A DNA stretch of 64,000 nt from Lytechinus pictus. Taxonomy: Eukaryota. The notes under the pieces were generated by a model. It searched no databases. It had not been told where the DNA came from and was given only the letters and a program-made list of their open reading frames with translations. Shown piece after piece: positions 4,913-52,682 of this stretch. Every line of letters starts with the position of its first letter. Positions within the stretch are counted from its first letter, which is position 1. Where the stretch lies: NCBI RefSeq assembly GCF_037042905.1, contig NC_087250.1, positions 13,890,001-13,954,000 of the forward strand. Reading direction: 5' to 3'. The translations under genes were made by a program, and so were the position numbers.

Positions 4913-7900
4913 TATAAGGCCCCCAGTTTATAGTTTTTACGACTTGCCGTAGGGCCGCCATAGAGAAAATGTGACCGAGGTATAACTGTATGGTTGCATC
5001 TCTTAAAAGTAAAATGTATGGACATCTCCACACTTGCTTACATGTATGTATGTACACTGAAAGTGTCTATTTCCATTAGAACACATAGAAACATATAACT
5101 GTAACAGTTGAAAACACAATCCGACAATCATTTTTTTTTCATTTCATTTATTGGTTTTTGCAACATTTTTCATAACAAAATCGTGGACAAGAAAATACAT
5201 ATCTGAAATTTGACATCAAGATAATGAACAATAGTTTTGTATATCATCAAATATATCATACATAAATGAAAATCATTAAGTGGTATTTTCTGTTACACAA
5301 TAAATAGGATGGTTGCAAGGGTTGTCACAAAAGCGAAGCTTGAAAAAACGTAACAGCCCGGGAAAATAGCCAAAATAATTACAATCATGATATTGTATAT
5401 GATTAAATAAATCCTCAAAAAGGGGCCTTTGAGAAAATAGTTGAATATAAATCTTGTGATTGTTACCAGTAATGTTCAGTGATTGTATCACACCAATGGA
5501 ACTATTATTACTTTGAATATAGCTACACAAAATAGTTTTTAATCAAGGGGCCTCATTTGACCCACTTTAATGGGGCAAATAAGGCCACCTTGCAACAATA
5601 TTCTATACTCATTAATATGCAAATGACAGTGATTAGATCTCATATTTCTATTGGATAATATAGGTATACTGTAGACCTTGTATTAGACATCTATCTTATG
5701 TTTCTACTGCTATGTATTAAAAAGATATGATTAGAATTATTGTCCCCATGGCAACTCTTTGCCTGGTGTTTAAAATGACTGATGATTCACATGGAAAATG
5801 TCTGTGGTTTGCAGCGCAATTTGCTCCACAAGTTTTAATGACTGCGAGTCTGCAACATAACATTTCTTTTGTATATGCATTTTTACATAGCACTATATAG
5901 CGTATACATGTACGTGTAGTTGAATGTCTATTTTCTCATTTATGATACCAGTTGTGGTATCGATCTCAAAGTGAGTTTGAACAGAATTTAATGAAATTAC
6001 CACCCAAGTGTTTGTGTTTATGAATAAATATGCGCCAAATGGCTCTGGAAGAGAATGCGTAATTGCTGAGAAATGAGCAAAATAAGCACGGCATTCTATC
6101 AAGTGTCAGCTATTTTTCGAACCAATATTAATACACTGTCCCACATATGCATTTTTGTGTGAGTGATCATCAGAATGATTGATTTTGAGCTAAGATTTCA
6201 CGATCTTACAAAGATAAGTTTACATTAACCAGATCTAGATGTACATGAATGGTAAGAAACCTTGATTTAAAAGACTCTCATGAAATAATTGTTTGCTGCA
6301 ACTAGGCCTACATGAATGTCCTGTCTTTTACCTTCAACCAGAAATGCTTTCCTTTAATATTCATCATAGGAAAAGGGAGCTTTCCTGGCAACTAAATACA
6401 CCTAGGGCATTCTGACTTATATGCATGGAATATTCATCAGATATCATCTGTCTTTGTCTGCTTGGAATCCCACTAGTGTTTCATCAAATTGAACACATAG
6501 GGAAATCCCCTGTCATGTAGTTATCTATGGAATGCCATAATGGGGCTGGGATGATCACCCTTCATCTTTTGAATGATTGTTTAATATATCAAACATGTTT
6601 GTATTTCATTGCTGCATATCTTCATATCATTACATTCGTTCTGAGATTGGCTCATGATGAATTTTTTTGAAGTTTCTGCATACCCTCTTAAAATAATGAT
6701 ACTTATTTATAACATGACATTTATGAAAGAGTTCTTGTATAGTAAACACTTAATACATACATGTAGTATTAGGAGTGGGTTATGTATGGGCAATTTTTCA
6801 CTTTGCTTTAAATAGGGAACAGTTTTTATTTGCATGTATTCTGTTGACTTGAAATCCCACTAGTATTTCAATTGTCAACAAATGAACACATTTATAGGGA
6901 AATTCCCTATCATGTAGAACTACTCTACATGTATCTAGGGGTTGGGATGATAACCTCTCACGTTTGGTTTGATTGATTTCTCAAACATGTCTGTATCTTA
7001 TTGATGAATTTCTACACTTGAAGTATACACTCGTTCTGAGTTACATGTAGCTGAAAACGTTCTGGTTTTTAAAATATTTATTAAGAAGGCACATTTCCAA
7101 TTTTAACCACTGATGAAAATCATGGGACTACATGTATAAACTATGCATTGTTCTCAAACATGTTCATGTATTGATGAAGTTCTTCACTCAGTTCAAAATT
7201 GATGTTGACCCCAAAAATTGACTGATATGACAGTTCGGATGATTGCTGAAGAAATGTCTTCATATCTTCATTAGAAAGTTGATCTAAAGTACATTATGAA
7301 ATGTTCAGCAGCTAATCTAGTATTATTGATACTGAGTATTATATATTTGGATGATTGCTGAAGAAATGTCTTCATATCTTCATTAGACAGTTGATCTAAA
7401 AGTATATTATGAAACAGCAGCTAATCTAGTATCATTAATACTGAGTATTACAAAAATATTCATATCTTCTACATGTACATGTACATGTTCGCTTTGGGAG
7501 GGGATGTCAGGTACATATATGGGTGGGGGAACGATCCCTTTCTTAAAACTTACTCCACGTCAGGGTGAACTTAATAATTAGGGCTGTGGCTCTCATTAGC
7601 AGCTATCTTGGGTAGGAACCAAAGTATCTGTGATTTTGATTCAGTCATCACATCCTGCAAAATACTGCATATCAAGTTTGAAGGAAAAGGAGAAACAAAA
7701 AAAATTCAGGGTCATAAAAATGAAGAGCGCCCCCCCCCCCAAAAGCAAAGGTCTTGTGCATGACTGATCAATAAATTGCTATTTGAAGAAAGCATAATGT
7801 TTGATTATGACAGACGACAGATTGACAGTTGACAGTTATATTGAAAATTGCCCCTTTTTAGTGCTGCCGATATTCCGTATATATATATGTTGCATGTATC

Positions 7901-8099
7901 TTGAACTTTTATACCAAGAAAGCAAGAATATAGAATCAATTTGAAAGAATTGGCCATGAGAAATGAGTGCAAACAGCACCTCCTTATCTTGTAGAGAGTA
8001 TGTGTAGCCACTATGGAATAATGTGAAATCGAATCATATTCTTGAGTGGTTTGCAACAAATAGCATCGTGTTTAATTTCCAGATTGAAAAGGTCACAAC

Positions 8100-8390
8100 T
8101 GAGAAGGGATGTTCACACTATACCTCAACCATGAATTATATACTCTGAAAAGAAAGTTTGAACATATATGTACAATAAGAAAAGCATGTTTACACTATAC
8201 CTAAACAATGAATTATATAATCGGAATAGAAAGTTTGAACATACACTGAGAGGGATGTTCACTTCTTGCCTAAACCATATATTATATACTCGGAAAAGAA
8301 AGTTTGAACATACACTGAAAAGAGATGTTCACACTATACCTACAAGTAAACCATGAATTATATACTGGAAAAGAAAGTTTGAACATACAT
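8100..8390. repeat. Degenerate ~60-70 bp tandem repeat
   Basis: gatgttcacacta...gaaagtttgaacata repeated about 4 times. Confidence 0.75.
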
Positions 8391-9264
8391 GTATTAGTGA
8401 GTACACCCCATGCAAAAGTTGTTCCACAATGCTGGTTTTGAATTAAACCTTCACAGAAAATGTAAAATGGACATTGTGTATTAATTCAAAAGAGGCACAA
8501 ACTAGTTACTCACACTTTAGGCTAATTATCCTATTAATTGCTGATTTATGAGAAAATGGTAGCAACAAAAGTGAGTACACTCTATTACTTTGAAATACAT
8601 GTATGATCATATTAGTACTTGTTATGGCAATATTTCAAGCACTTATTCCCAGAACGTTTTCCTTGTGAGGAGCCAACTCACTTTGCATCCTGGAATTCTT
8701 TGAATATCATTTCACCCCTCTATGATGGACATGTTTAATATAGTAGGCCATCTTGTCCTCCATTCCTGCATGACTTCATAATGATAGGTGTGCTTGAGAT
8801 GTGTTAAGGCCACCGCACTTGTTACGACTGGTTCACTGTCCGATTTGGGAACAAATCACATTTTTCTTTATTTCTGAAAATGTGAATGAAAAGTATCTAT
8901 TTGAGGTTCAAATTAACTGTAAAGAATATTGTGTCAAATTTAAAGAGGCACTGAAAACCAGTTATTCACACGTATGCTATTATCAAAATCGCTCATGTGA
9001 GGAAATCGTAGCAACAAAATTTGGATGATCGCAACTCTTTGGGCGAGATGAATACGGCCACCCCCATTCACGGGGACAAAACCAGATTTAAAACATGGGA
9101 TAAGTAGTTATCACTCATGCATATAAAAAGCAAATTTGATAGTGGGCGCAGAAGTTGCTTTGCAAATTATCCAACTCTCCCTGTATTGACTCTAGACATT
9201 AGTTTCTTGATGTGGATGTTGAAATCAAAGTTGACAATTTTTTGTCATTTTTTTTCTTGTTCAG

Positions 9265-9389
9265 GAAATGACACAACCTAGGATGTACCAGGAGCCAGAG
9301 GAAGCCAGACCTACATTATCAAGCAGCGAATTCTTAGAATTATTCAAAGAGATGTCAACAAGACCTGAAATCTATTTCCTACTTGTCAG
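9265..9389 (+). CDS. PLCL2: PLCL exon (EF-hand): [41 protein letters not shown](R)
   Basis: ttcag acceptor, gtgagt donor; [10 protein letters not shown] motif typical of PLCL. Confidence 0.92.
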
Positions 9390-12300
9390 GTGAGTTTTAG
9401 GAGAGGAGAAGGAGATAGATAGAGAGAGAGATGGAGAGATAGGAGAAATGGAGGAAGAGGGTGGGAGGGAGTTGCGGGAGGATGAAAAATACTTAATATA
9501 ATAATATTAATATAGGTATATTTACCCAGGGAAGCCACTTCAGTTCTGAAAACTGTTCTCCCAGTGGGCCCTGCTATTATTATTACCCCGGCTTTAGCTG
9601 GGCTGCCTAGGCGCTCAAAGCATTCATTCTTGGAATTATTCAAAGAATGTAAAAAAGACCTGGGCCCCGTCTTACAAGGAGTTACGATTGATCCAATCAA
9701 TTGTAATTCTATGGTAATCCATCAGTGTCATAATTTTTTCTACAGGAAATTTGCAAAATGTCCTTTGTAAACAAAGGAGAACACACCAAATTGTCAAGAA
9801 ATCAATGAATTTATGGATATACATTCGTATCTAGAACAAATTTTGAACAAACATACATTTTATATGTTTACTTTGCTGGCTTTCCATAGTTGCGATTGAT
9901 TGGATCAATCACAAATCTTTGCCCCTGGACCCTGTCTCACAAAGAGTTGCGATTGATCAGATAAACTATAACTATGGAAAGCCAGCAATGTCATCCTAAA
10001 AACTGCAAGTTTGTTTCAAATATTTTCTAGATATGATATTCATACATTCACTATTTTCTTGAAAATTCAGTGTGCTTCTCTTTGCTTTATACAAAGGACA
10101 TTGTGCAAATTTCCTGTAGAAAATATGATGACATCGATTGATTTCCGTACAGTTAAGATCGACCGGATCAGTTGTAATTCCTTGTAAGACGGGCCTGAAA
10201 TCTTTTTTCTTATTGCCGGGTAAGTTGATGTGTTGGAGAGTGTTTCAAAAAGTAACTAGTTGTTTTCACTGACTTATTTTTTTTCTCAGCCAATCAGATC
10301 CAAGGATTTGATGTAGCACATAACTGTTTTGGCCCAATGGATAGGTCTTCGCACTTTGAACCACAAGACCCGGGCTTCAAATCCCACCGCAGCACTTGCG
10401 TCCTTTGGCAAGGTGTAGTAAATGGGTACCCGGTAGGAAGGAATTCCTTGAATGTTGAGTGTCCGATCAGGGTAGATGTGCTAAAGCCGGAGTTATAGTA
10501 TGCAGTGCTTAATAGAAACATTTATATTAAGCATTATGTTGATGTTTCATATTATCATTATTATTAGTAGTAGTAGTAAACAGTCATTAAAATATGCTGA
10601 TTTATGCACTTAATTTTTTAAATAACAGGTGACGTTTCTGCGTCATATCTCAACCCATTCAGAATTAATGCTAGTATGGGATTTTGAGGCATGTTTAACT
10701 AGGGGATTAAATCACTTTAAACTTTTCTATAGAAATACATGTAGTTTCATTGATCCATTTGATCTATTTGTTAACAGGTACTCGAGTAGTGAATTTATGA
10801 CATTGGACGATCTCATGATATTCTTAGAAGCAGAACAAGGGGTAAGTTTGATGTAGCCAGAAGTCAGGTTGATGATTATGATGAAAGTCATGATGATGTT
10901 AGTTGTGATGACGATGATGATGATGGTGATGAGGATGATGATGATGATGATGGTGGTGATGATGATGATGATGGTGATCATGATAATGATGGTGATGATG
11001 ATGATGGTGTTGATTATGATGGTGATGATGATGAATGATGATGAATGATGATGATGTTGATGATAAAAGGGGAAGTTTTTCCTGAAGTTCGCCCTGACAA
11101 AAAGTAAATTGTAAAAATAGCAGAAAAATAATAAAAAATATTCCAGAAAGTTTGAGAAAAATCCATCAAAGAATAAAAAAGTTGTTAGAAATTGAAGTAT
11201 TTGATTTGTGACGTCATATGCGAGCGTATTCCTACATAGCGAATGATAAAACATCAATGAAATGTCATTTTCTGAGAAAATTGAAAATGGATTTTTCTTG
11301 GTACCTTTCGTATATCAATAGACAAATCATTTCACACCCGATCATGAATAAAAAACAAAAATAAGTCATCAGGAACCATTAATAAAATGAAATTTATGCA
11401 TTTTATATTACATAACATATGGGCAGCTGCTCGTTTATGACATCACAAATCCAAAACTTTAAATTCTAATTTCTTAATCTTTAACGGATTTTCCTCAAAC
11501 CCTTACCAATAATTTTTCTTATTTCTTCTGCTATTTTTACAAACTATTTTTCAGGGTCACCTTCCCCTTTGATTCACTGTTCTTTGATAGGGACACTTGT
11601 CTTCCAAACGAACTGTAAAAGCCAATTCAACCGACGGGCATTTATTCCCTGTACCTTCAAATCAGATTGAAGATTGAATTCAAACCTATTTCTCTGTCCA
11701 CCATTCAGCTTGGATGGTTTGCATGTTATTCAGCTGAAAGTCTCATCTTACATGCAGCTGGTAGTCGGGCTAGAGACCCAGTCACACGGATGAAACTGGT
11801 CCCATACCGACCAAAGCTAAAGCATTATATCCAATGACATACCATTGGTCGGTTTGGAGTCGGTGTTATCCGTGTGACTGGGGCACAAGGCTGACTGTAG
11901 CATAATATATCAAGTTATGAACCCAGTGAATCAGAATGATTTATTTCACAGTACATGTATAATGCATTTCTAATGAATCACAAATGAGATTTGTGATGAT
12001 AGTGTTATGATAGAGTAAATAAATATGTGGCAAATCTCACAGTATAGTGTAATTCTGTTCATCGCATGGGGTGTGCAGACCTGCCAACCAGTACGTTATA
12101 GCCGTATTTAGTACGTTTTTGCAACCAAAATACGGCAGTACGTTTTTTCTTTGAAAAATCCTTTTTTTGTATAAAAAACGTACACCAATATGGTTATTAG
12201 ATCAATGTAATTTCAGGTACAGTTACTTGTTTTTTTTTTCAATCATTTTGTTAAAACTAGGGTGAAGATATACACATGTTTTAATGTTTTTTTTTTCATC

Positions 12301-15300: not shown

Positions 15301-18300
15301 ATAGAGACGATATATATACACCATCATAATGTTATTTTTTTTTGTAGGTTTTACAAGCTATCTATTATCATCAGAATGTGATATTTTTGACAATCTTCAA
15401 CGGAGAGTTTGTCAGGACATGACCCAATCGTTATCTCACTACTTCATTGCTGCTTCTCATAATACGTGAGTATTTAAAGGGCAATCACACATGTTATGGC
15501 GGGGGGGGGGGGGAGGGTACTCGAATTATAATATGATACCTATGTGCCGCACCAAAGTCGGGGGTCGGGGGCTCTGGAACTAAATATTGGTCTCAAAACG
15601 GGGTCTCCGGAATGGCTCTGATCAACGATTGCTAAAAATGCAATGCTGTGAAAAAGGGGGTCTCCAGAACCCATAGATCGTAGGCATAATTGGTAGCGGC
15701 TGTGTAAAAAAACCTGCGTGCGTCTTGCTACATTCATTTCGGGCAAGCTAGCTGCAGGCGCAGGGGAGCTTCAGGGGCCAGTTAAAGTGGGCAATCCCTC
15801 GTATATACCTAATAGCCCTGCGGGCAGGGGAAGGGTGGTGACTTCCCCCTCTACATATACCTGTACTGCTGCAGTGTTTCGTAAGTCATTATTTTTTCAA
15901 GCCTTGCATGTAATTTTAGACTGAATTTGGGACGTCTGGAAACAGGGATAAAAAATTGATGTTACTGTCTGTGTAAGTGACACTTTTAAATTGTATTATT
16001 TATGTTTGTATGACAGTCAAATGATGAAAATGATATTAATGATGGTTATGATAATGATGACAATGACAATAACAATATATGAATGAAGATTTATATATAT
16101 GTTTTCATTTTTTAATGTTGTAGGTATCTAACTGAGGACCAATTGAAAGGACCATCAAGTGTAGCAGCGTATGTGTCAGCATTACAGAAAGGATGCAGAT
16201 GGGTGGAATGTAAGGTTTAGCCCCCGAGTCATGTCAGAATTTTTTTGTTCCAGAATTCACCGGTGTTGCGCCGGCCGGAATCTGGTGTCCCGATAAATGA
16301 ATTCGCGAACGGGGAAGCACTTAAGCACTTTCTTGGAAACAGATGCAGGGTTGACTGGCGGGATGGGAAAAAACTTTTTCCAAAGTTTGCTGAAAATTTC
16401 AAGATTTAAATTATCACATAAATATAATAATTAGAGATTAATATAGCGCACAAATCTGTCGGTAATGACAATCAAGGCGCACAATTAACATAATATGCAT
16501 GAAATGCCTATCTGTTTTGCATATTATTTTTATAAATACTACTAAATAATGACGAATACCACATTCTTTCTTCGCTCTGAATATCTGATTAAAAAAAAAA
16601 ATTCAGTTGATAGTAGGGAACGTTCAAGCACTTGATCAAGGTAGTTGTCATTGGTAGTAGTGTGGGGCACTCAGAGACATTGTATTAAGCGCTTTACAAA
16701 TGTTGCAAATTAAAATTCATTGAATGCCGAAGCACTAGATGAAGGTCGTCATGCCAAATTCAGGGTACTTGTAGCACTTTCAAGCATAATGCAAAATGGT
16801 GCATATTGTTATTGTTAAATATTGTTTTGTGTGTTTTATTTCAGTGGATGTATGGGATGGAGGCAATGATGAACCTATAATCTATCACGGCCATACACTC
16901 ACATCTAAAATACTCTTCAAATCAGCTATAGAAGCGATTAATCAACATGCGTTCGAAACATCAGAGTGAGTATTCTGTCTAGTTTGGTCTACTTCCGAGA
17001 CATTGATGAAATCCATTTGGTATCATGTTCGCCACCTAATCGTGAGCTTCAAGATCAACACCAAGACCGAAATTAAAATCACAATTTTCCCCAACCCTGG
17101 GGGTTGGCGTTAGTGAATGGGCAAATTACATGTAGATCGTCAACACCAGCTGTAATGCTTGCTTGTATGTTTGCGACAATCAACAGACCTCGGCTGAGGG
17201 AACATGGTCTGTTGATTGTTGCAAACATACATGTGACAGTAATGCACGCTGCAAACTTGGTTACGCATAGTGCTGGTGTTATCGGTGAACATGCGATGGA
17301 CAAAATCATATGGATCCAGAATTGCATGATGAATGGATCAAAAATTGCACGGATGATGATGTCATTGTAAAATGGGCTGAATGATCGATATCAAACAACC
17401 AATCGAATGACAATGACCATTCTAGACGTCATGTAACATAGAACAATGGTCTATCATATCAATTACCTGTCAAGCTGCATTGTCAGCACGTACATGTAGC
17501 TGGTTTCATCTTCAAACCATCTCTTGTGGGGACATCATGGTCAAGTGGTTATGACTCTTGTCTTCCAATCTGAGGGACGTGGGTTCGAATCCCAGCCATG
17601 GCATGTTTTCCTTCAGCAAGAAAGTTACCCAAATTGCGCTGCACTCAACCCAGGTGTGGTGAATGAATACCCATTAGAAGGGCCTAAATGAGAACAGATT
17701 TCAGAACTGAACGGGGTACCCCGTGTAAATATACCGTTATTATTATTATTGATATGATCTCTTTAGGTATTCAGTGATTGTATCGATTGAGAACCACTGC
17801 AGCATTGATCAACAGAGAGTAATGGCCCACTATATCAAGTCTGTGTTTGGTAACAAGCTTCATAGTGAGACGATAGATGATTTGATCTCTTTTACTACAT
17901 TCTTTTGATCTCTTACTAGGTATCCAGTGATTGTATCGATTGAGAACCATTGCAGCGTTGATCAACAGAGAGTAATGGCCCATTATATCAAGTCTGTGTT
18001 TGGTGACAAGCTTCACAATGAGCGTATCAAGGTGATTTCATCTCTGTACTACATTCATTCGATCTCTTACTAGGTTTCCAGTGATTGTATCGATTGAGAA
18101 CCATTGCAGCGTTGATCAACAGAGAGTAATGGCCCATTATATCAAGTCTGTGTTTGGTGACAAGCTTCACAATGAGCGTATCAAGGTGATTTCATCTCCT
18201 TCTACATTTATTCGATCTCTTACTAGGTTTCCAGTGATTGTATCGATTGAGAACCATTGCAGCGTTGATCAACAGAGAGTAATGGCCCATTATATCAAGT

Positions 18301-21300
18301 CTGTGTTTGGTGACAAGCTTCACAATGAGCGTATCAAGGTGATTTCATCTCCTTCTACATTTATTCAATCTCTTTAGGTTTCCAGTGATTGTATCGATTG
18401 AGAACCATTGCAGCGTTGATCAACAGAGAGTAATGTCCCATTATATCAGGTCTGTGTTTGGTGATAAGCTTCACAATGAGCGTATCAAGATGATTTCATC
18501 TCTTTCCTACATTTATTCGATCTCTTTAGGTTTCTGATGATTGTATCGATTGAGAACCATTGCAGCGTTGATCAACAGAGAGTAATGGCCCATTATATCA
18601 AGTCTGTGTTTGGTGACAAGCTTCACAATGAGCGTATCAAGATGATTTCATCTCTTTCCTACATTTATTCGATCTCTTTAGGTTTTCAGTGATTGTATCG
18701 ATTGAGAACCACTGCAGCGTTGATCAACGGAGAGTAATGGCCCATTATATCAGGTCTGTGTTTGGTGACAAGCTTCACAATGAGCGTATCAAGATGATTT
18801 CATCTCTTTCCTACATTTATTCGATCTCTTTAGGTTTCCGATGATTGTATCGATTGAGAACCATTGCAGCGTTGATCAACAGAGAGTAATGGCCCATTAT
18901 ATCAAGTCTGTGTTTGGTGATAAGCTTCACAATGAGCGTATATAGATGATTTCATCTCTTTACTACATTCATTCGATCTCTTTAGGTTTCCAGTGATTGT
19001 ATCGATTGAGAACCATTGCAGCATTGATCAACAGAGAGTAATGGCCCATTATATCAAGTCTGTGTTTGGTGACAAGCTTCATAGTGAGACGATAGATGAT
19101 TTCATCTCTTTACTACATTTATTCGATCTCTTACTAGGTTTCCAGTGATAGTATCGATTGAGAACCACTGCAGCGTTGATCAACAGAGAGTAATGGCCCA
19201 TTATATCAAGTCTGTGTTTGGTGACAAGCTTCACAATGAGCGTAGCAAGATGATTTCATCTCTGTACTACATTCATTCGATCTCTTTAGGTTTCCAGTGA
19301 TAGTATCGATTGAGAATCATTGCAGTGTTGATCAACAGAGAGTAATGGCCCATTATATCAAGTCTGTGTTTGGTGACAAGCTTCACAATGAGCGTAGCAA
19401 GATGATTTCATCTCTGTACTACATTCATTCGATCTCTTTAGGTTTCCAGTGATAGTATCGATTGAGAACCATTGCAGTGTTGATCAACAGAGAGTAATGG
19501 CCCATTATATCAAGTCTGTGTTTGGTGACAAGCTTCACAATGAGCGTAGTAAGATGATTTCATCTCTGTACTACATTAATTCGATCTCTTTAGGTTTCCA
19601 GTGATAGTATCAATTGAGAACCATTGCAGTGTTGATCAACAGAGAGTAATGGCCCATTATATCAAGTCGGTGTTTGGTGACAAGCTTCACAATGAGCGTA
19701 GCAAGATGATTTCATCTCTGTACTACATTCATTCGATCTCTTCAGGTTTCCAGTGATAGTATCGATTGAGAACCATTGCAGTGTTGATCAACAGAGAGTA
19801 ATGGCCCATTATATCAAGTCTGTGTTTGGTGACAAGCTTCACAATGAGCATAGCAAGATGATTTCATCTCTGTACTACATTTATTCGATCTCTTACTAGG
19901 TATCCAGTGATTGTATCGATTGAGAACCACTGCAGCGTTGATCAACAGAGAGTAATGGCCCACTATATCAAGTCTGTGTTTGGTAACAAGCTTCATAGTA
20001 GGACGATAGATGATTTCATCTCTTTTACTACATTCTTTTGATCTCTTACTAGGTATCCAGTGATTGTATCGATTGAGAACCATTGCAGCGTTGATCAACA
20101 GAGAGTAATGGCCCATTATATCAGGTCTGTGTTTGGTGACAAGCTTCACAATAAGCGTATCTAGATGATTTCATCTCGTTCCTACACTTATTTGATCTCT
20201 TACTAGGTTTCCAGTGATTGTATCGATTGAGAACCATTGCAGCGTTGATCAACAGAGAGTAATGGCCCATTATATCAAGTCGCTGTTTGGTGACAAGCTT
20301 CACAATGAGCGTATCAAGATGATTTCATCTCTTTACTACATTTATTCGATCTCTTAATAGGTATCCAGTGATTGTATCGATTGAGAACCATTGCAGCGTT
20401 GATCAACAGAGAGTAATGGCCCATTATATCAAGTCGGTGTTAGGTGACAAGCTTCATAGTGAGATGATAGATGATTTCATCTCTTTACTACATTTATTTG
20501 ATCTCTTACTAGGTATCCAGTGATTGTATCGATTGAGAACCATTGCAGCGTTGATCAACAGAGAGTAATGGCCCATTATATCAAGTCGGTGTTAGGTGAC
20601 AAGCTTCATAGTGAGATGATAGATGATTTCATCTCTTTACTACATTTATTTGATCTCTTACTAGGTATCCAGTGATTGTATCGATTGAGAACCATTGCAG
20701 CATTGATCAACAGAGAGTAATGGCCCATTATATCAAGTCTGTGTTTGGTGACAAGCTTCATAGTGAGACGATAGATGAGGATCTTTCATACCTTCCTTCA
20801 CCTCATCAACTGAGAGGCAAGATTCTTATCAAGGTTAGTATAATAATGATAAAGCAATATTGACTGGCCTCGGGGCGATACAACATATATCGCCCAAACT
20901 AGATTCGTCTACGACTCGGGCGATATCAATTTAGTGAGGGCGATATATGTCCTTTCGCCCCGAGGCCAGTCAATATTGCTTTTATTAACCAAAGCAGACA
21001 TCTAGAGCAAAAATCGCTAATATTTAGATATTTTAGAGTTTAAGAATGAGAATCTAGTTTACCATGTTGAGCAGACTGGGCCTCTGAATATTACCATTGT
21101 GACGTAAATGAAATGACGCGTCCCTGGCCTAGGGACACGGTATCCAGCGTCTCAACTTGATTTACATTGTGACGTATAGCACTGCGCGGTTCAATGACGC
21201 GTACAAAATTGTGTAGAATACCCGGATGTTAGCTCTGCCTTATTGCCCGCTACATTTCCACGCATTTTCTCATTAACTCTCCTGAGCGGGCAATAAATTG

Positions 21301-24300
21301 GGCCCGTGGATAAACAATTGGAAATTTATTGACCGGCCATTTGATCCCAGTCTTAAGCAGGCAACAATGTATTAAAGTTGACCTGCTCAGATGTCTGATA
21401 TGGTTAATAATAAGTAATAATAGTAATAGTAATATCAGTAATAATGATGATGATGATGATAGTAATTAGGCCTTGGAGTGAACATCGATTGATAAATTGT
21501 TTGAATGGCTTGCCGCCGACTGCTATTCGATTAGCAAAATTTTTACTGTTCGAATGTTTGGCAGATCCCAATTAGACACTTGGGATAACTCGAATACTAC
21601 AGTAACAGTAACAAAAGGCCAAGATAACAATGATAACAATTGTTTTTACATACTTTTACATACAGGTTTAAAACAATGTTACCGAGGTAATTTGTCAAAA
21701 ATGAACAATGATTTATCACATTCCCAGGTAAACACCAATCTGAAAGAGCTCCGAAAATATTAATCCCACCTGTACCGTCCTTTTCCTCGATACACAATGC
21801 ATGTTGTCTGCATACTTAACAGTTAAAACAGAAAGTACACACACAAAAAGCTCACTTGAGCTGATACGTGATTGGATCCTTCCGACGGCCAACAAAACTT
21901 TATGGGAGACAAAGCTGGAGGAGAAGCCACGTGGATCCACTGATCTGTACAATTCAATTCAACCCACGTGCTTCCCATTATCAGGAAAAGTCATGACTTC
22001 AGAAACAAATTGACCCCCCCATCTCTCTGTGTGTGGATCTGTGTGCGAGAGAGAGAAAGAAATATAGGGGCTGGGAGCAAGAATTCCTTTCATGTTTCAA
22101 AGCAAAGCAGTTAGCCCCCCCCCACACACCAACTTTCCCATAACTTTCCAACACACACAGTCACTAACATACCAGGGGCCCGTTTCATAAAGAGTTACAA
22201 CTGTTGTAACTTTGCCATTATGGCAACTTCCATGGCAACCTTGATTATGATTGGCTGCTGAGCCCTGTTACCATGGTAGTTGCCATAATGGAAAAGTTAC
22301 AACAGTTGCAAGTCCTTTATGAAACGGGGCCCCTGATGTTTTTGACTAGTCTCCCAAAATAGACCCAGTTGTAGGTTCAAATGATAAAAGTTTTGTAATT
22401 TTGAAAGGTATTCTAAATGAAATATATTTTGCAAAATACAGTGTGTAGCATCATGTGCAGTGCCACAGGTGGGGGGGGGGGCATGGTGTGGGTAAGGAAT
22501 GAATTTTACTATCAGCCAATCAGATTGAAGGATTTCAGTAACTTTTAAATTTATTTGTAAATTTTTTGCAGGGTAAGAAGCTAGCTGATGATGTAGAAGG
22601 AGATGAAGGGGAAGTCACTGATGAAGATGAAGGATCGGATACAGATAGAGGAAAGAAGATAAAGAAGGTAATTATCAATCATCATATTGCAGGGCTGCCG
22701 AGCCTCTCAGAAAATTGATTTTTGAGTGAAAATCTGCAGATTTTCAACATCTCCCTGATTCATACGTTGGATGATTTCAAGTTCAGTGTTGACCTTTTGG
22801 TGTTGGTGTAAGGTCAATTTTTACATGATTATAGCACCAAACGTAAAATGAACACGGTCCTGAAAAGTCGCTCACTAGTAGAGATGTCAATAATGTGATC
22901 TAGATCAGTTTTACACTCTAAAAAATAGGTTTTGGAGCTAGAGGAAGCAATCCAAATTGTGCTTCCAACCCCAACTCCGGATTTGAAAGCACCCATTGAT
23001 TTCTTTCAATAGATTGTGTGTAATTGAGAAAGATATCTCTCCTTCCTCTGTAAGGGGTAAGGGTTCAAATCCCACCACAGCACAGAGAAAAGTAGATTAA
23101 ACGCTAAGGTAATTATCAATTATCATTCTTGGACTGCCAGGTCTCATAATCAAGCATTCTATTTATTAATGATAATAATAATAATACTAACATTTGTAAG
23201 GTTCTTAATGTAGATGTTTCAAAGCACTCAATTTTCTGGCTTATTATTGATTACTGGGGATGAAAGAACAAAAGTGTAATTAATAAATGAATAAATCACC
23301 AAGTCTCAGATTATAAAGATTAAAATTGACGATAAAAAATTGCTTTTTGCGTATGCAAAATATCAAGAATTCATATTCTTTATATGAGGAATCATTTGTG
23401 TTGTTAACAAAAGGCGATTCTTGACATCAACGAATGGGATCAAGAAAACTGCATGCCATGGTCTACCTTTGTCGGCATATTTAAGGCCAAACGTTCTGAT
23501 GCGACAGTTTCTTTACACATAAAATTATGATTCCGTAGAATGCAAGACTTACCTCTTTTTATCACTCTGGTTAATTTATACATTCCTCTTTGTTTTCTTA
23601 TCTTTCTCATTTAAGTTTATTTTATTTGGTGTAAATGTGTGTATTCCTCTTCATTTTGTCATCTTTCTCTTGTAAAGTTGTTTCATTTTGTGTTTATAGG
23701 CTCGATTTTTCTCATTCCGGAGGGATGACGACCCTGATCTCAAGGTCAAAAGGTTAAGGGATAAATTGACCTTGAAAGAAATAATGGCTTCTATAGCCAA
23801 GGTATAACGGTTTGATGTTTTTTTTTAGCGCATCCTCTTTCTGCCATTTTGCCTTCATAAATTGACCTTGGAAAAATAATGGCTTCTGTAAAGCCATTCA
23901 GTTTGTCTCTTTCTACCATTTTTTGCATTCATTTTGCTAACGTTTTGAACTAACACTTGTATTTTTCATACATTTATTAGATGTTTCAACTTCATTTAGA
24001 GCTGACAGACTGGGGCATAAAATCATTGGTTTTGGGAACATTTTTCTATTAATTAAATCTTTCTGCTGGGTAAAAAAAATGCATTTGAAAATGTAGCGAG
24101 TGCAATTGCTCCATTAGAACATTTATTATTCAAGGTAAATGATGTTGTGTTATGAAATTTTGATTTAAGTTCATCTAAATATGTTAAATAAATGGTGTTA
24201 GACTGAGTGAAAATAAGACAAAATGTCCCTTATTGTGAATAGAGGTTTATTTCTAACTCTGGGGTACATTTCATAAAGGACTTCCAACTGTTGTTGTGGC

Positions 24301-27300
24301 AACAGGGCTCAGCAGCCAATCAAAATCAAGGTCACCATGGTAGTTGCCATAATGACAAAGTTACAACAGTTGCAAGTCCTTTATGAAATGGGGGCCCTGG
24401 TCTGCGCATGACCATTACATTAGAAATTTCAAACAGTAAAGATTAAAATTGACAGCACATCAGGGCCCCGTCTTACAAACAGTTGCGATTGATCCGATCA
24501 ACCACAACTATGGACGGCCAGCAACGTCAACATCTAAAATGCAAATTTGTTCAAAATATTTTCTAGATATGATGTATATTTATGTGTTTCATTCTTTTGA
24601 AGATTCAGAGTGTTTCTCATTGTTTACCAAAGATAATTTCCTGTAGAAAAAAATTATGGTGTGGGTGGATTTCCATACATTTGAGATTGATTGGATCAAT
24701 CGTAACTCTTTGTAAGACAGGGCCCTGGTGCTCGATTCATCCATAACTGTTTGGGAATGACAATAAAGCTTGGGAAAGGGACCACAGTGAATATTAGAAG
24801 CATACAGTTTTACTTCATTCTGTCATTCTTCATTCTTGGTCTAGTGGTTCTGACTCTCGCCTTTCAAACAGAGAGTCGTGGGTTCGAATCCTAGCTATGG
24901 CGTGTTTTCCTTCAGCAAGAAATTTATCCACACTTGGCTCCACTCGACCCAGGTGAGGTAAATGGGTACCGGCAGGAAGTAATTCCTCAAAAAGCTGTGA
25001 GCACCAGAATCGGTAGACTAGCTTAGGCGGGGTAATATAGGAGTGCCTTGAGCACCTAGCAAGGTGGATACGTGCGCTCTACAAATTCTATATTTTATTT
25101 CTTTTTTTTTTTACATTTCTGGTTTACTTTAATTTAGCTCAGAGTTAGACCAAAGTCTAAGTTAAACCAGGCTTCGGAATATGGGCCAATGAGTATAGCC
25201 TGAGTGGAAGTTAGACAAAATGATAAATGAGCTAAATGGCAATTAGACAATATTAATAATCATTAACATTATTTGTATAGTGCTTATCACAAAACATTAA
25301 AGCGCTTAGGAAAAAATAGAAAGAGAGTTGGAATTTCAGCAAAAAATTTAAGTAATTGAATAGTTCACAGCGGACTATAGACAATTGAGGGGCTGCATAA
25401 GCAAAGGGAAAGGCTATTTAATAAAAAAGTAGGTTTTTAGCGTGGATTTGAATTTCTCTATTGAATCTGTTTCATACTTTGTAGTAGATTGTTCCAGAGT
25501 TGAGGGGATGCGGAATAAGAAGATGATTTAGTAAACAATTTGGTTGTAGATGAACTGGACCTAGGGGGTGTTGCAAGAAAATATTTGCAATCAATTGCAA
25601 ATTACAGTTGTAAAGTTATGAGTGATCAATCAATTTTAACGAAGCAAATTGATGGATGTTGATACAAGAAGCACACTGATGATCAATGGCAAATTTTCCA
25701 TTAATGGCAAGAACTATGATTGATTTGGGGATCTAAAATTGACTTGCGATCGATTGCAAGTTTCCTGCAATGCCCCATTAGACCATGTGACACATGTGCT
25801 GGTGATTATAGTCCTGTTAGACATAAGAGAATTAGCTTTATAGCTAGGCATTATACACCATCAAATACATGATCAGAAAATGATCTAATGGATCACATGG
25901 TCTAGTGGGGGTATTGCAAGTTTCTTGCAATACCGATTAGACCATGGCCCCGTCTTACAAAGAGTTACGATTGATCCAATCAATCATAACTCTATGGAAA
26001 TCCATCACGGTCATAATTTTTTCTACAGGAAATTTGCACAATGTCTTTTGTAAACAAAGAGAAGCACAGTGAATTTTCAAGACAACGATGAATGCATGAA
26101 TATACATCATGCTAGAAAATATTTTGAACAAACATGAATAATACATGTAGATGTTGACTTTGCTGGCCGTCCATAGTTGCGATCGATCGGATCAATCGCA
26201 ACACTCTGTAAGATGGGGCCCATGTGACACGTGTGCTGGTGATATATAGTCTTGTTTAGACATTAGAGAACTAGCCAAGCCAGGCATTGTACATCATCAA
26301 CACTTATATGATCAGAAAACGTGATACCAATCCACAGATCTTGTTGAGTCATTCTCTCTTAAAACTTAAAAGGGAGGCGCGATAGCTTAGTCGGTAGAGC
26401 GGGGGTTTCGGATTCGGTGACCCGGGTTCGATTCCAACTTGGTGCGCTAGTGTCCTTTGGTATTAAAGGTATTAATCCTCATTACCAGGTCCCTCAGAGA
26501 AGACCTTAAGCCGTTGGTCCTCTGGTTGCCTGCTTACAAGCATTCATGCTTTCGTAGTAATCAGGTAAAAAATTACTACCATCATAACCACCATCATTGC
26601 CATCCCAAATAGGACTTGATTCTTAGCAATATTTGTGTCCTTTCCTGTAGTAGCTGCTTTGCCGTGTGAATCATTTTTTTTTCATCCTAACCTAGAAGGG
26701 ACGCTTGCCAAAAACGCCCTTTTTCACGATAGGGCAATCACTGAATTTTTTGGGGGCTATTTTTTTTCATTTCAAGGGCTGCTTTTTTAAAAAGCTCCAA
26801 GCAAGTATGGGGTAAAAACAAATAATGCTATTCTGCCGTAAAATATTGATTTGCTGAATATTCTTGACTATTTGTGGTAGAATTGGGGGAGACTGTCTCT
26901 TGAAAAGAAGGTCATTTGAAAGCACTCTATCTGGGTGATTTTAGGGGCGATTTGGGCTATGATGTAGGCAAGATCACCTGCTATGGCCACTCTCAGCTGT
27001 TTCCTTATAAAGTGTGCCAAAACAACAGGGCGCCGTCTTACAATGAGCTATGATTGATCCAATCAACCAAAACTATGGAAAGCCAGCAATGTCAACATCT
27101 CAAATACATATTTGTTAAGAATATTTTCTATATGTGATGTATATTCATATATTCATATTTTTCTTGACAATTCAATGCGCTGCTCTTTGTTTACACAGGA
27201 CATTGTTCAAATTTCCTGTAAAAATTGTTATGACAGTGATGGATTTCCATAGAATTGAGGTTGATTGGATCGTTCGTAACTCTTTGAAAGATGGGACCAA

Positions 27301-30300
27301 GGCCTTGTTAATAATTGGTTGATTTTATCTAGTAACTATGCACGCTCTAAAAGGGATCAAATAGTAGTAGTCAACCGGTCATAGAAAATACATCCTGGCG
27401 AAAGTAGTGTATTCTGCATGGATAAAAAGATATGTAGAGCGGTGCTCAAAAGTTAGTGAACCCCACCAGAAAATGAATATTTGAAGTGTTCAAATTCTGC
27501 CATATTTTAGATATTTTATTGTAAACTCAGATGATAAAATATTTCACTCAATAAAGTTTGTTTACTCAGATGATGAAATATTACACTTTTTAATAATAAA
27601 GTTTGTTTCTCTGGGCTCGCCAAACCTTGTATTATTGTTGTCTACATTCAATACTCTGCATGAAGGAGTGCATTTTGTGGTGGGGATCACTGACTTTTGA
27701 GCACAACTGTATGTGTTTAATTATGTGACATTTCTTTGACTTCTGGCATATCAAGTGTTTTGGTACGAGGTATGTAATGTAACAGTCAACCTATGCAATA
27801 TGATCAGATACCTCTACACTTCTGGTATATACGTGGGCAAATGGAATTCCTTTTGTATTGACATATGTGCTGGTACATACACATATACTTAGACTCAAAT
27901 GGAAGAAGTCAAGAGAGAGACCTTTTATATATATATATTTTAGCAATTTCTGGATCAAATTCGCATAAATGTATTGTAATTCTGCAATATGAACTCGATT
28001 CATTTCAGCTGCACCTATAGTTATTAAAATAACTGAAGCCCCATTCCTTTCATTTTACTATCCTTTCTGTTAAATACAGGACGTTCCTTTTCTATTTAAT
28101 CTACATGTAAGCCTAACCTCTCTTATCAAATCAGTAATATTTGGCAATGCATGATAATGCAGGAAATCTAAAGGTATCACAGGTCATAAATGTTTATTAA
28201 AAATATTTTTCTGCTGGTATTTATGATGTTGTTTTTGTCGCAGCCAGAAGGTTTACAAACGTAGGATAATTGGATCAGTGATCATAATAATAATAATAAT
28301 AATGTAACTTATGAAGTGCCAAAATTCACTCAGTAGAGAGCCCAAGGATATAAGGATTTAAAGGAAAAGTTCACGCTGATAAATTGGTCTTGATAGAAGC
28401 AGAAAAATGGAAGAAATATTTGGTGGGGGTTTGATGAATGTTTGTCTAAAGAATGATAATTTATGTCTTTAAAAGTTTGATTATGTGACGTCACAGATGA
28501 GCAGCTCCTCCTTATATTGTATGATATTGATTTTTTTAAAAGGCAGTTTTCCAAAAGAATTTAAAATTGTTTTATTTGTGGGTTAACCCTAAAAGGCCCG
28601 GGGGGGGGGGGGGGGGGCGGAATCCGCCTCCCTCAACATATTTCGCGATTAATCCGTCGCGCGAAATTTTTTCAACGCGCCGCTCGCTGACTTTTTACTT
28701 TCAAGTCTCACGCAACTTTTGAGACCAAATTTGCGATGCCCGGGTACCGGTTAGGAATTTATGCAACATTATGTAAGTGCATGTCAGACCCAAAATTTCT
28801 CAAAAACGTGAATTCATGTACAAATCCAATGCAAATTGTGTATTTAGCCAAAATTTATTAATGTATCATTATTTCTACTTTTATTGATAAAAAATAATTA
28901 ATTTTGTCTTGTTTATGATCAGAATTAAGTCTGCAACAATTTCCATAAAAAACAAAAACAAAGAAATACATAAGAAATTAAAAAAACAATAAAATACATA
29001 AGAAAAAAATTGCGATACCAATTTTTTTTATGTACGTTTGATCAGAATCCTACAAAGAGTCTGTGAATAAAAAATTTGCAATTTTGGGGCCATAGTAAGT
29101 TAATTAGAGCAAATGTTTTATTTCATGCATAAATTAGCATAATTAATTCATTAAAAAAAAATCTTATTTTTTCAGAAAAATTAATCATACAGCCTTGTAG
29201 ATTTTATTGCACACTACCACTGTGCAAATTTTCGCGGCGCCCTTGCGATCGACGGCCGAGATCTCAGGGGGGGGGGGGGCGGAATCCCCCACCCTCCTCG
29301 GCTGTGAGATGGGTACAAATAATCCGGCTCTTTTAGGTTTAATATATCATCAGACACATCATTCCAGTTACCCTTCTTGTATAAAAGAATTGTCTTAAGT
29401 TTGTTCTGATCCCATTCCGCATAAGGGAGACCTTTGAAGGACCATTGAAAGACCAAACATTGGCGAGGTCTTAAAGCAGTCTCCAAGATCACTGAAATTT
29501 GTCATCTCTGGAATGGTTCTGAAAGACCCCTCAAAGAACTCTGAAAGACTGATTGATAATTCTTGTCTTACTGGGCTTAGACTAGTCCTATAGAGATCTT
29601 TCAATGGTCTTTCAGAGATCTTTTATGCAACAAGTGATCTTTCAGTATTTTTTCCATGGACTTTCCTGGTCTTTAAAGATCTTTCAATGAATCCTTTAAT
29701 GATCTCTCAGTGATCTCCACAAAAATCTTTAGAGACTGTTTAAACAGGGAAGTGTTATAGACTTCCCTGGTTTAAAGATCATGGAAAGACTAATAAGAAC
29801 TTTGAAAGATCATCAAGAGACTGCTGAAAGACCATCAAAAGACCAGTTTCCTGAAAGGCCGCTGATAGACTGTTTTGAACTGTTTCAAAAAGTTTTGGAA
29901 ATCATGAAGGCCACGAAGAACACTGACAGATCAATCAGGAATTATGAAAGACCTCAGATACTTTTGAAAGTTCATTGAAAGACCTTTGAAAGATCAAGCA
30001 AGTTTCATGGTCTTACAGACAGTGGTCTTTCAGATGTCTTGTCTTCTGTGGAATGGGGGTTTTCATCATGGTCCATTGAAAAGATGGAATGTATGGGATT
30101 GTTATTATATGATATGTGAGGAGCAGCTCGCATATGACATCAAAATTAAAAACTTTATTCAACCTCTCTTAGTGGGGAATTTTCATAAAACCTTCACCAA
30201 TATTTTTCTCCAATATTTCTGCTACCACCAACTAAAAAGAAAAAACAATTTCTATTTTTCCTCCTTCTCTCCTACAGTTAACATGACCAATTTATTTGAC

Positions 30301-33300: not shown

Positions 33301-36300
33301 ATACACGCGTCTGATACACGGTAAATTAAGCGTAATTTATACAGGAAATCTGCATAAACCATGGATTCAACCGTGGGTTTTCAAAACCACCTTTGTGAAT
33401 TCGGGCCATTTTGTTTAAATCTTTTAATCAACCCCTTCATGACCATGAAGTTGTCAGCATAATCAGCTGGCGAGAAGAGAATTGAGATGATTTTTTAGAC
33501 ACAGATATTTTGAAAGTGTCTTCACAATTCATTTTCCTTCCTTGGTGTTTATGTTTTAGTCCAAATGAACATTAAAATACAACCCACATTAAAGTTCTTT
33601 TTTTTTTATAAGCCAGACCTCTGAAATTTAACCAATGTCTATAATACTGCTCTTCTTACATTGGTTTTATTAGGTGTCTTTATATTTGGTAAACTGCTGA
33701 TTTGTCTATTGCCAACTTGTTCACTCATCACATGGTATACCTTCATTTAGTCTAATGCCATTCCGTCCATCAACATTTCATCTAACAACCGTTTGGTCCA
33801 ATAACAATTTGGTCCAATAATCACTTCGTCTAATCCCCAGTTCGTCTATGACCATTTTGCCTAATTTTCTTTTCATTCATTTCGCCCAATCAACTTTTTT
33901 CCAATTAGACCAAATGGTTTATGGACTACATGGCTATTGGACCAACTGGTTATTAGACGAAATGGCAATAAGAACGTGTGGATAGTAGACGAATTAATGA
34001 TAGACCAAATGATAGTAGACAAGTTGGTAATGAGATGAATTAGCATTAGACCACTTGGAAATAAACCTTTATATTTCACTTCATGAAAAAGAAATTTGGG
34101 CGTTGCCTTTGAATGTGAAAGTGTGCATATAATTAGATGTTCATATATTTTGTTGTTTTCAGTGGCTCTAAATTACCAGACGCCAGGATTAATGATTGAT
34201 CTCTACGATGGAAAGTTTCAGATGAACGGCAGCTGTGGATATGTATTGAAACCAGCTATCATGAGAGAAGGTGAGCAGAATTCGGTGGATTCACAATACA
34301 GTACGTGATCTATCGGTCGCAGTGGACAGGCCGAAATTCGCAATGCCTTGTGGGAAAAAGTCGACATTTGTTGCACACCCCAGTACTAAAGTGCATGTAC
34401 ATGTATGCGATTATTCAGCATTGGCCGATGGGCTTGAGTGGATATACATGTATGCTGTATACCAGGGTCCATCATTATGTTAGTATAAGAAAAAAGATAT
34501 TTTTTTTCAGATTGAAAAAATGGAGTTACTTTTGAATAAACAATAATCGTTTTATAAATTTACAGCCAAAAAGCCTTAGTTTTTAACTCAAACCTTTCAT
34601 GTTAAGTTTTCAAAGCCTCCATATATCTTACCGTAGCATATCGCCTCAAATTTTGATTGGTATTTTCAGGGATAGCTTATTTTTGACAAAACTCATTTGA
34701 TGTGATCCTTGGAGTAATATCTTTAATCTCTAATGTTGTTAAAATTCAGAGATTATTTTTGAACAAACCAATTTATAAGAGTCTCACTCCAAATCTTGAA
34801 TCTTATTTTTCAGAGATTGCTTATTTCCGACCGAACTCATTTGACTTGATTCCGGGAGTATCGCCTCAGATTCTTCACATCAAGATCATCAGTGGCCAAC
34901 AGTTCCCTAAACCAAGAGGATCAGGATCTAAAGGAGATGTGAGTCTTTCTTCTTATCATTCTTGAACAGCGTAGGAATTACATGAGGGCGACGCTCGATT
35001 TCGCCCCCAAGACAGCCCAAATCACCCCTAAAATTCCCCTGAAATGCATGCTTTGGGGCGACCATTCTTTCTAGAGTCTCTCCAAGATCTGTCGTATCCC
35101 TAAAAAGGACCATGAAAGGATTTCATGACATAACATAAATATTCCACACATATGCGATTTGTGGAATATTTTCCCAAACTCTTGGAATATTTCTGGTATT
35201 CCATTCTGAGCCATCCAATATAATTTAATTATTTGTTTTATTTTTTAGGTGATAGATCCATACATCTCTTCAGAAATCTTTAGCATACCAGCTTTCTGTA
35301 GAGAGGAATAGATGATAATAAACATTATTTGTTTTATTTTGTTTAGGTGATAGATCCATACATCTCCGTAGAGATCTTTGGCATACCAGCTGACTATAGA
35401 GAGGAATAGATGATAATAAACATTATTTGTTTTATTTTGTTTAGGTGATAGATCCATACATCTCCGTAGAGATCTTTGGCATACCAGCCGACTGTAGAGA
35501 GGAATAGATGATAATAAACATTATTTGTTTTATTTTGTTTAGGTGATAGATCCATACATCTCCGTAGAGATCTTTGGCATACCAGCCGACTGCAGAGAGG
35601 AACGCACCAAGACAGTACCTCATAATGGTAAAGTAGTGCTCATAATTCGGATGACCAACTATATAAAAAAAGTATGCATCAAATGATAAATTCCAGACTG
35701 TATCATTTCATGTGCGCAGGCTATATACATCAGGGTTCCGTCTTACAAAGAGTTGCAATTGATCCAATCAAGCGTAACTCTATGGAAATCCATCGGTGTC
35801 ATAATTTTTTCTACAGGAAATTTGCACAATGTCCTTTGTAAACAAAGAGAAGCACAGTGAATTTTCAAGAAAACAATGAATGCATGAAAATACATCATAG
35901 AAAATATTTTGATCAAACATGTATTTTAGATGTTGTCATTGCTGGCATTCCATAGTTGTGATTGATTGGATCAATCACAACTCTTTGTAATACGGGGCCT
36001 TGGGTCCCGTCTTACAAAGATTTGCGATTGATCTGATGAACATCAACCCTATGGAATTCCATCAACAAAAAATTTACACAATGTTCTATGTAAATAAAGA
36101 GGAGCATACAATGTAGAAGATTATTTAAAAAAAAGATGAATGTATGAATATGCATCATTTTGAACAAACCTGCATTTTAGTGCTGGCTATGCTGGCTTTA
36201 CTGGCATTTCATGTTTGTGGTTTATCAGATCAGTTGCAACTGGGCAATTCCATAGAATATGTACGTCCGACCCCCTATATGTGGGACCTTCATAAATGTT

Positions 36301-52225: not shown

Positions 52226-52682
52226 AGTCATCTCCATATTGGAATTAATAACAATGTATAATTTCCACCTGCATTGTCGCAATGCATGAAATGATGCTTT
52301 CATGGTCCTCACTTTGTAATAAGGGGAATAATGTCCTCACTTTGGAATGAAATCGATGAGTTATTGGAGAGCAAAGATTTGTAGGGTCCTCAGTTTGTAA
52401 CAGTTCATTAGTAATGATGTTAAAGGCAAAACAAAAAATAAGGGGCTCGCTTTGTAACAAAGTTGACAAGTTATGATGGCGAGAGCAAAGCTTTCAAGGT
52501 CCTCACTTTGGTATGAAGTTGCTGTAACAGGGAAATCAAAGCTTATTAGGTCCTCACTTTAGTTGGGAAGTTATAATGGGGAGTCAAAGCTTAGGGCCTC
52601 AGTTTGTAACAAAGGTGATAGGTAATAATGGGGAAAGCAAAGATTTTTAGGTCCTGACTTTTTGTAACCATTGATAAGTTAA

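Follow-up and report, generated by a model that had tools for sequence, protein, structure and literature searches.

How does a transcript settle on one 3' splice site when the acceptor, together with the beginning of the exon behind it, is repeated twenty times in a row? This question is raised by a phospholipase C (PLC) gene of the sea urchin Lytechinus pictus, which lies within the 64-kb stretch of contig NC_087250.1 analyzed here (the window; all positions are counted from its first letter). In this gene, nineteen copies of an intron/exon boundary precede the authentic exon that carries part of the X-box. We consider it probable (about 0.7) that the array is a minisatellite of the type known from amphioxus as a mirage, that the mRNA uses its last copy, and that the other copies are a tolerated by-product with no regulatory job.

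Twenty acceptors before one X-box exon

The exon pieces of the gene match the Pfam families PI-PLC-X, PI-PLC-Y, and C2. A 794-aa L. pictus PLC model (P0001) is 100% identical to the window, its exons map to the + strand between 9268 and 48695 by tblastn, and it has the exon at the array only once. Because the model contains a single copy of this exon, its annotators evidently join 16965 to 20665. Orthologues of the model from S. purpuratus (86% over the exon) and Diadema were obtained by a protein database search. Alignment of the model to PLC delta-1 (E 3e-150) revealed identical HN, ELD, YHG, ENHC, and KGKK motifs, which we take to be the catalytic and calcium-binding residues of that enzyme, and the real exon itself aligns over the ...SLENHC... 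segment. PF00388 (PI-PLC-X) is matched by the real exon with E 1.7e-19 and by a two-unit decoy reading frame with E 5e-24. The original prediction, which was made from the letters of the stretch alone, had claimed that the array copies a segment of a catalytic exon (SIENHC). With the PLC delta-1 motifs unchanged, this is a fair description, and "catalytic exon" is a fair label for the X-box exon. It should be added that the model bears the database name "inactive phospholipase C-like protein 2", which is doubtful because the X- and Y-box motifs aligned with the active-site stretches of PLC delta-1 are kept.

Tandem Repeats Finder (TRF) reported the repeats as one array at 17756-20767 with a period of 152, 19.8 copies, 94% matches, 1% indels, and a score of 4902, while the core anchor motif of the array occurs 20 times. 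Unit spacings (n = 19) are 151 (1), 152 (11), 153 (3), or 154 nt (4), meaning that 3/19 are divisible by three and 16/19 are frame-shifting. When aligned in register, each unit consists of 114-116 nt of exon-derived sequence and a pyrimidine-rich spacer of 36-38 nt, the latter including its terminal AG. This AG is found immediately 5' of the exon-like start in 20/20 units, the sequence after it is aligned by tblastn in 20/20 units to residues ~196-247 of the annotated protein, and units 19 and 20 have the same 23 nt in front of their acceptors. Unit 20 alone continues into the final 55 nt of the authentic exon and its donor AAG/GTTAGT (20833/20834). The region is arranged as follows:

16844..16965, + strand: upstream PI-PLC X-box exon, with a translation ending in AFETS (PF00388 E 4.5e-13; X6 RNA contig on 16845-16967)
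16965/16966, + strand: phase-2 donor AGA/GTGAGT, which ends the upstream X-box exon and leaves over two codon bases, GA
16966..20664, + strand: intron of 3,699 nt, the last 2,909 nt (79%) of which are the decoy array (protein model, tblastn, RNA contigs)
17756..20664, + strand: nineteen decoy units (repeat finding, unit alignment)
17767, 17920, 18074, 18227, 18378, 18530, 18682, 18834, 18986, 19138, + strand: exon-like starts of decoy units 1-10
19290, 19442, 19594, 19746, 19900, 20053, 20207, 20361, 20513, + strand: exon-like starts of decoy units 11-19
20665..20833, + strand: authentic X-box exon of 169 nt, the first 114 nt of which are unit 20 (protein model, Pfam, X1/X2/X5/X6 contigs)

Most of what had been claimed for the structure of this array was recovered, namely twenty units with nineteen decoy acceptors ahead of the real exon, unit lengths that are mostly not multiples of three, an AG kept in every unit, and a penultimate acceptor matching the real one. 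The proposed unit design of intron end, YAG, and coding sequence was likewise found, although its sizes (~40 nt and ~112 nt) had to be corrected to those given above. In silico splicing agreed with two further claims, i.e., that decoy use leads to a frameshift or stop and that the exon tail and donor belong to unit 20 alone. When the donor at 16965 was joined to each of the decoys, the resulting frame opened with E(Y/F)... and reached a stop after 37-101 codons in 19/19 cases; only from unit 20 (20665) did the reading frame continue to AAG/GTTAGT.

The choice of acceptor is also visible in RNA. Eight coded runs from two studies carry 6-9% of the sampled window words, approximately the share of two exons, and contigs of two runs per study (X1 and X2; X5 and X6) were compared over 16100-35700. 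In each of these four runs there was one contig of 2.2-3.8 kb confined to exons, which we therefore regard as derived from mRNA. The authentic exon is covered over 20665-20831 with 0 differences in X1 and X2 and over 20668-20831 with 2 differences in X5 and X6. In the X6 contig, positions 1935-2057 lie on 16845-16967 and positions 1770-1933 on 20668-20831, and this adjacent placement indicates that 16965 is joined to the last acceptor (~20665). Thus, according to both the annotated protein and the contigs of 4/4 runs, the last acceptor yields the main product, with the authentic exon boundary located at the array edge and regular splicing undisturbed. None of the contigs from the four runs was placed on units 16-19, as the depth of 0.26-0.51 in bin 20024-20677 equals the contribution of 10-13 bases of the mRNA contig alone. 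No decoy junction was present among the contigs listed for the four runs, with the limitation that contigs drop rare forms. Bins 19370-20023 had zero contig depth and other uncovered array bins had 0-2, values that are uninformative on expression. Low-depth contigs in 18062-18715 (X1 1.54, X6 2.06) resemble the intronic contigs of the same run in depth (~2.1) and may be pre-mRNA.

Origin and turnover of the units

The array could be accounted for by a tandem duplication of the 3' splice site together with the initial 114 nt of the X-box exon, with ~25 nt of filler at the junction, followed by amplification to 20 units through unequal exchange. The 19 upstream units would sit in the intron and would be removed with it. 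The last acceptor would be chosen by exon definition, as no other acceptor is followed by the 55-nt rest of the exon with a good donor at a distance of 169 nt. We find this plausible and the most economical reading of last-acceptor choice. Use of a decoy would produce a premature stop and probably loss of the transcript by nonsense-mediated decay (NMD). As a side effect, the array would probably trade sequence with the authentic exon.

Comparison of the units is compatible with such a history. There are two clades, which are up to 17-18% apart. Units 1, 9, 15, 18, 19, and 20 share the ...HSETID ending of the real exon, while the remaining units end in ...HNER(I/S)K and have a 2-nt insertion. 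Within local blocks such as units 10-13, distances are only 0-3%, unit 18 does not differ from unit 19, and a two-unit block is repeated, as units 1-2 resemble units 15-16. Units 1 and 20, at the two edges, group with each other (3% distance) and are 8-18% from the central units. Accordingly, there is concerted evolution inside the array with its edge units set apart, and the unit distances appear to present the usual picture of unequal exchange with local homogenization. We also considered whether the type-B units (HNERIK) might retain an ancestral Arg as in S. purpuratus (HTERID). This was ruled out, as L. variegatus has SETID like the real exon. A metagenome scan with a 45-nt unit pattern returned 0 matches.

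The spacer agrees with the intron to the left of unit 1 in its final 11 nt only. The remaining 25 nt may be filler inserted at the junction of the founding duplication. Neither this stretch nor the 15-nt filler of a second array (see below) occurs elsewhere in the window, and alignments of the fillers to the left flank or the exon tail were no better than those of shuffles (P 0.27-0.96; for the 25-nt filler, P 0.96 against the left flank and 0.27 against the real exon tail).

The second array is located in the same gene and precedes a C2-domain exon. TRF found it at 35228-35602 with a period of 98, 3.8 copies, and 95% matches, and tblastn matched residues 462-481 of the 794-aa model to it four times:

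34810..34938, + strand: C2-domain exon upstream of array 2, with phase-0 donor GAT/GTGAGT (contigs on 34812-34938 in X2, X5, and X6)
35228..35542, + strand: array 2, three 98-bp decoys with exon-like starts at 35249, 35347, and 35445 (TRF, tblastn)
35543..35629, + strand: authentic C2 exon, the fourth unit, which leaves over one codon base, G, with donor ATG/GTAAAG (100% identity to residues 462-490)

Each decoy of array 2 contains 23 nt of intron tail with its AG, the first 62 nt of the C2 exon, and the 15-nt filler, which opens with a TAG stop. The boundary-spanning design holds in 4/4 units, and regular splicing at this site is read from the protein model. That one gene holds two arrays of like design suggests a mutational process rather than a bespoke function. 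The two arrays also share the motif GA-N-GA(A)-TAGATGAT where the exon part meets the filler:

17869-17881, 19088-19100, 20615-20627, 35303-35316, and other unit copies: GA-N-GA(A)-TAGATGAT

Random pairs of 30-nt windows from the gene had a common 8-mer in 1.5% of trials. The shared motif could either be due to chance or hint at a common breakpoint mechanism.

Variation in the authentic exon offers a further view of the array. In the database, the 794-aa protein clusters with the L. variegatus orthologue and a further pair of L. pictus models. Between the two 794-aa L. pictus models there are 6 residue differences, 3 of which (Y203F, I215V, and K226R) fall within the 33 array-homologous residues (binomial P = 0.0013, with the caveat that the three may reflect a single event), and a 614-aa L. 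pictus model carries these three differences as well. The corresponding sites also vary among the decoys:

20667, 20702, 20736: polymorphic sites of the authentic exon (residues 203, 215, and 226 of P0001)

The alternative states are present in 13/19 (F), 17/19 (V), and 3/19 (R) decoys, and the derived I of the window is common to units 1 and 9. L. variegatus has Y, V, and K at these sites along with a SETIDED ending. In the X5 and X6 contigs, 20702 is A>G, which is the V allele, and X5 additionally has the synonymous change 20779 G>A. The X5 and X6 pieces begin at 20668 and leave one contig base at 20667 unplaced, which would fit the F allele. Hence, one of the two studies has RNA contigs with the V allele and, probably, with the F allele. 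A search for further alleles among near-identical short fragments of residues 160-280 gave 100 matches, the best at 67%. Exchange or conversion would be expected to leave such a block of array-like states in the real exon, and thus the pattern suggests trade between array and exon, in either direction. It is possible, though we would place it below even odds, that mirages beyond amphioxus are not inert, i.e., that array and exon trade substitutions by unequal exchange or conversion, with amino-acid polymorphism concentrated in the first 33 codons as a result, and that the junction motif could mean sequence-directed mirage formation.

Alternative readings of the decoys

Several observations weigh against a tolerated by-product whose last acceptor is selected by exon definition. 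The copy number of 20 rests on the assembly, the RNA evidence consists of assembled contigs and is blind to low-level decoy use, and the source of the 25-nt and 15-nt junction fillers was not traced by the alignments described above. In addition, some decoys have candidate donors of their own, which were scored by consensus count alone:

18032, 18186, 18339, + strand: candidate donors AAG/GTGATT in units 2-4 (8/9 consensus positions), which would close 112-nt pseudo-exons
18450, 18754, 20125, + strand: candidate donors CAG/GTCTGT in units 5, 7, and 16 (7/9 consensus), which arise from the K-to-R variant and would close 72-nt in-frame pseudo-exons

Units 2-4 therefore pair an acceptor with a donor that is as near to consensus as the real one, and a downstream donor alone is insufficient to account for their silence. 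Lastly, there are weak hints of constraint from two tests that count related units as independent: of the 21 variant states within the first 32 codons, 10 are synonymous versus 27% expected (binomial P = 0.034), and the AG was lost in 0/19 decoys versus 2.1-3.4 expected hits (P 0.035-0.12).

The consensus-like donors of units 2-4, the marginal synonymous excess, the full set of AGs, and the premature stop in each decoy product are also the points in favor of a regulatory role. In that case, the 19 acceptors or the pseudo-exons of units 2-4 would capture transcripts or stall intron removal, and NMD or retention would tune PLC output with copy number as a rheostat. We regard this as unlikely. 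The canonical junction is the one seen in the RNA contigs. The statistics are weak, as the units are non-independent and the values could arise just as well through exchange with the real exon, which is under selection; AG retention is not clearly beyond chance, stop states are absent from the 21 variants in the first 32 codons (P = 0.57 by chance), and variable columns do not differ significantly between the exon-derived part (31/116) and the spacer (15/39; Fisher p = 0.22). Consequently, there are at most weak hints of constraint on the decoys. The small second array, with only 3 decoys of like build, fits a mutational by-product, and published mirages leave splicing undisturbed (PMC3087553). 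Two ideas of the original prediction, that the decoys are poison acceptors tuning output by NMD and that the array is a copy-number-variable splicing rheostat, are thus without support, bearing in mind that contigs would miss rare decoy junctions.

Two other uses of the decoys were examined and rejected. Recursive splicing at AG/GT would regenerate a donor (AGA/GTATCC or AGA/GTTTCC) that fits only ~3-4/9 consensus positions. Mutually exclusive or cassette exons are contradicted by units that end 55 nt before the exon end, by the frame-shifting spacings, by the stops encountered from all decoys, and by their absence from the protein models and the contigs listed.

It is also quite unlikely that the true locus contains one or a few units and that the array was inflated or otherwise misbuilt during assembly. 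This would be in line with an amphioxus mirage that was aberrantly assembled in a draft genome according to Ebner et al. (PMC3087553), with the identity of units 18 and 19, and with a copy number that is taken from the assembly. However, 31/116 columns of the exon-derived part vary, and the units form two clades up to 17-18% apart, ordered blocks, and a repeated two-unit block. Divergent and ordered units would not result from collapse or stutter and would be hard to obtain by misassembly. Moreover, the 64-kb window contains no N, and array 2 has its own variants. The exact number of 20 may nevertheless be wrong or differ between haplotypes.

The least probable alternative, which we hardly credit, is a gene remodelling in progress, in which a decoy is becoming a new exon and the intervening repeats a new intron (the intron-gain model that Ebner et al. 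proposed for mirages, PMC3087553): possible pseudo-exons of 72 nt in frame (units 5, 7, and 16) or of 112 nt (units 2-4) would be its raw material, but no decoy was found in the protein models or contigs listed, and a decoy retained in the mRNA would lead to a partial duplication of the catalytic X-box or, for the 112-nt forms, to a frameshift. A protein database query with the two-unit decoy frame retrieved no decoy product; its 25 matches were all ordinary PLC fragments, and the best was 71% identical over 31% of the query.

Neighboring features and comparison with known systems

Additional repeats and model differences were observed in and around the gene. A tRNA-like, SINE-like (short interspersed element) dispersed repeat at ~17500-17700 adjoins array 1 upstream, with similar frames at 10256-10498, 24706-24894, and 36538-36813. 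ARAGORN found no tRNA gene in the repeat at 17500-17700, and contigs of the RNA runs reach a very high depth there (5,500-12,000 in bin 17408-18061). Introns of the gene also contain two copies (17077-17390 and 39691-39967) of another repeat, probably a transposon fragment, that has long open frames in both orientations. A (TGA)n microsatellite of ~64 copies (10870-11064) starts ~20 nt past the donor of the exon ending near 10847, and a 53-bp satellite lies just 3' of the last coding exon of the gene in two blocks, 49831-50823 and 51629-52229 (19 and 11.5 copies; higher-order periods of 156 and 104). At 23700-23801, a cassette exon of 102 nt (34 aa) is included in the 614-aa L. pictus model and S. 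purpuratus isoform X2 and is skipped in the 794-aa model. The L. variegatus orthologue is one 1,067-aa model; in L. pictus, the PH-domain part is a separate 287-aa model (P0030) that has no match in the window.

If the arrays are mirages as we propose, mirage minisatellites would extend from cephalochordates to an echinoderm, with the present array the largest case found in print. Its 20 units and the two arrays in one gene suggest that boundary-spanning tandem duplications are a more widespread feature of marine invertebrate genomes that are rich in repeats and highly polymorphic. The locus is also a natural experiment on 3' splice-site choice, as it has twenty near-identical acceptors, two of them with an identical 152-nt upstream context. 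Should exchange between array and exon be confirmed, it would show how a conserved catalytic segment can gain protein variation from non-coding repeats. A more practical consequence is a warning for annotation, since such arrays can mislead gene predictors and assemblers.

Tandem exon duplications can be used mutually exclusively or as cassettes, and decoy or poison exons regulate via intron retention or NMD. The units described here resemble both as exon-like repeats with splice signals inside a gene that would yield premature stops if used. They differ from both in that the exon's final 55 nt and donor are missing, 16/19 of their lengths are not multiples of three, and no unit-bearing transcript was seen among the contigs listed.

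The remaining comparisons are with published cases. L. pictus itself has inbred lines and gene knockouts (PMC9245184). In the Rogers model, an intron is gained by tandem duplication of an AGGT-containing segment (PMC3265369, PMC4974935). There, as here, a duplication with splice signals is absorbed by splicing and the mRNA is unchanged; the model, however, turns one exonic duplication into a new intron, whereas here an existing intron has received 19 units and no new intron. A closer relative is the 37-bp variable number tandem repeat in intron 7 of human F7, the first element of which spans the exon 7/intron 7 boundary and the identical pseudo-sites of which are silent, even though they could in principle function (Borensztajn et al. 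2006, PMC1557585). The exon-adjacent donor is chosen, and minigenes served to test the mechanism, in which scanning runs 5' to 3' until the first donor (PMC1557585). In both genes, a minisatellite has turned an authentic splice site into a row of silent pseudo-sites and the site beside the exon body is used. The two are mirror images, as F7 repeats a donor downstream in a 37-bp unit, while here an acceptor and 114 nt of coding sequence are repeated upstream.

The closest match is found in amphioxus, where mirages are minisatellite-like duplications of intron/exon boundaries that leave splicing intact (Ebner et al. 2010, PMC3087553). The name goes back to Canestro et al. 2002, cited there for Adh3, and further cases are TnC and PGBD5 (PMC3902484). 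The BflGb6 mirage has units of 150-160 bp built from an intron 3' end and the 5' part of an exon, with haplotypes of 3 or 6 units, and copy number variation between haplotypes is a feature of amphioxus mirages (PMC3087553). Unit identity is 81-100% with concerted evolution that excludes the edges, and splicing is regular by reverse transcription PCR (PMC3087553). Array 1 is likewise a head-to-tail array of an intron 3' end and an exon 5' part with units of 151-154 bp. It shares with amphioxus mirages an authentic copy at the array edge, splice signals kept by most units, regular mRNA splicing, and concerted evolution inside the array with the edge units apart. For boundary-spanning arrays in sea urchins or other phyla, the literature searched, which mostly excluded subscription journals, yielded only amphioxus and F7 and no echinoderm report. 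The "satellite born from coding sequence" of the original prediction is therefore real as an array but not a new kind, as mirages had already been published. What distinguishes the present case is its echinoderm host, 20 units rather than the 3 and 6 of the BflGb6 haplotypes, two separate mirages in one gene, a repeated part that encodes enzyme active-site residues, and a hint that array and exon trade variants.

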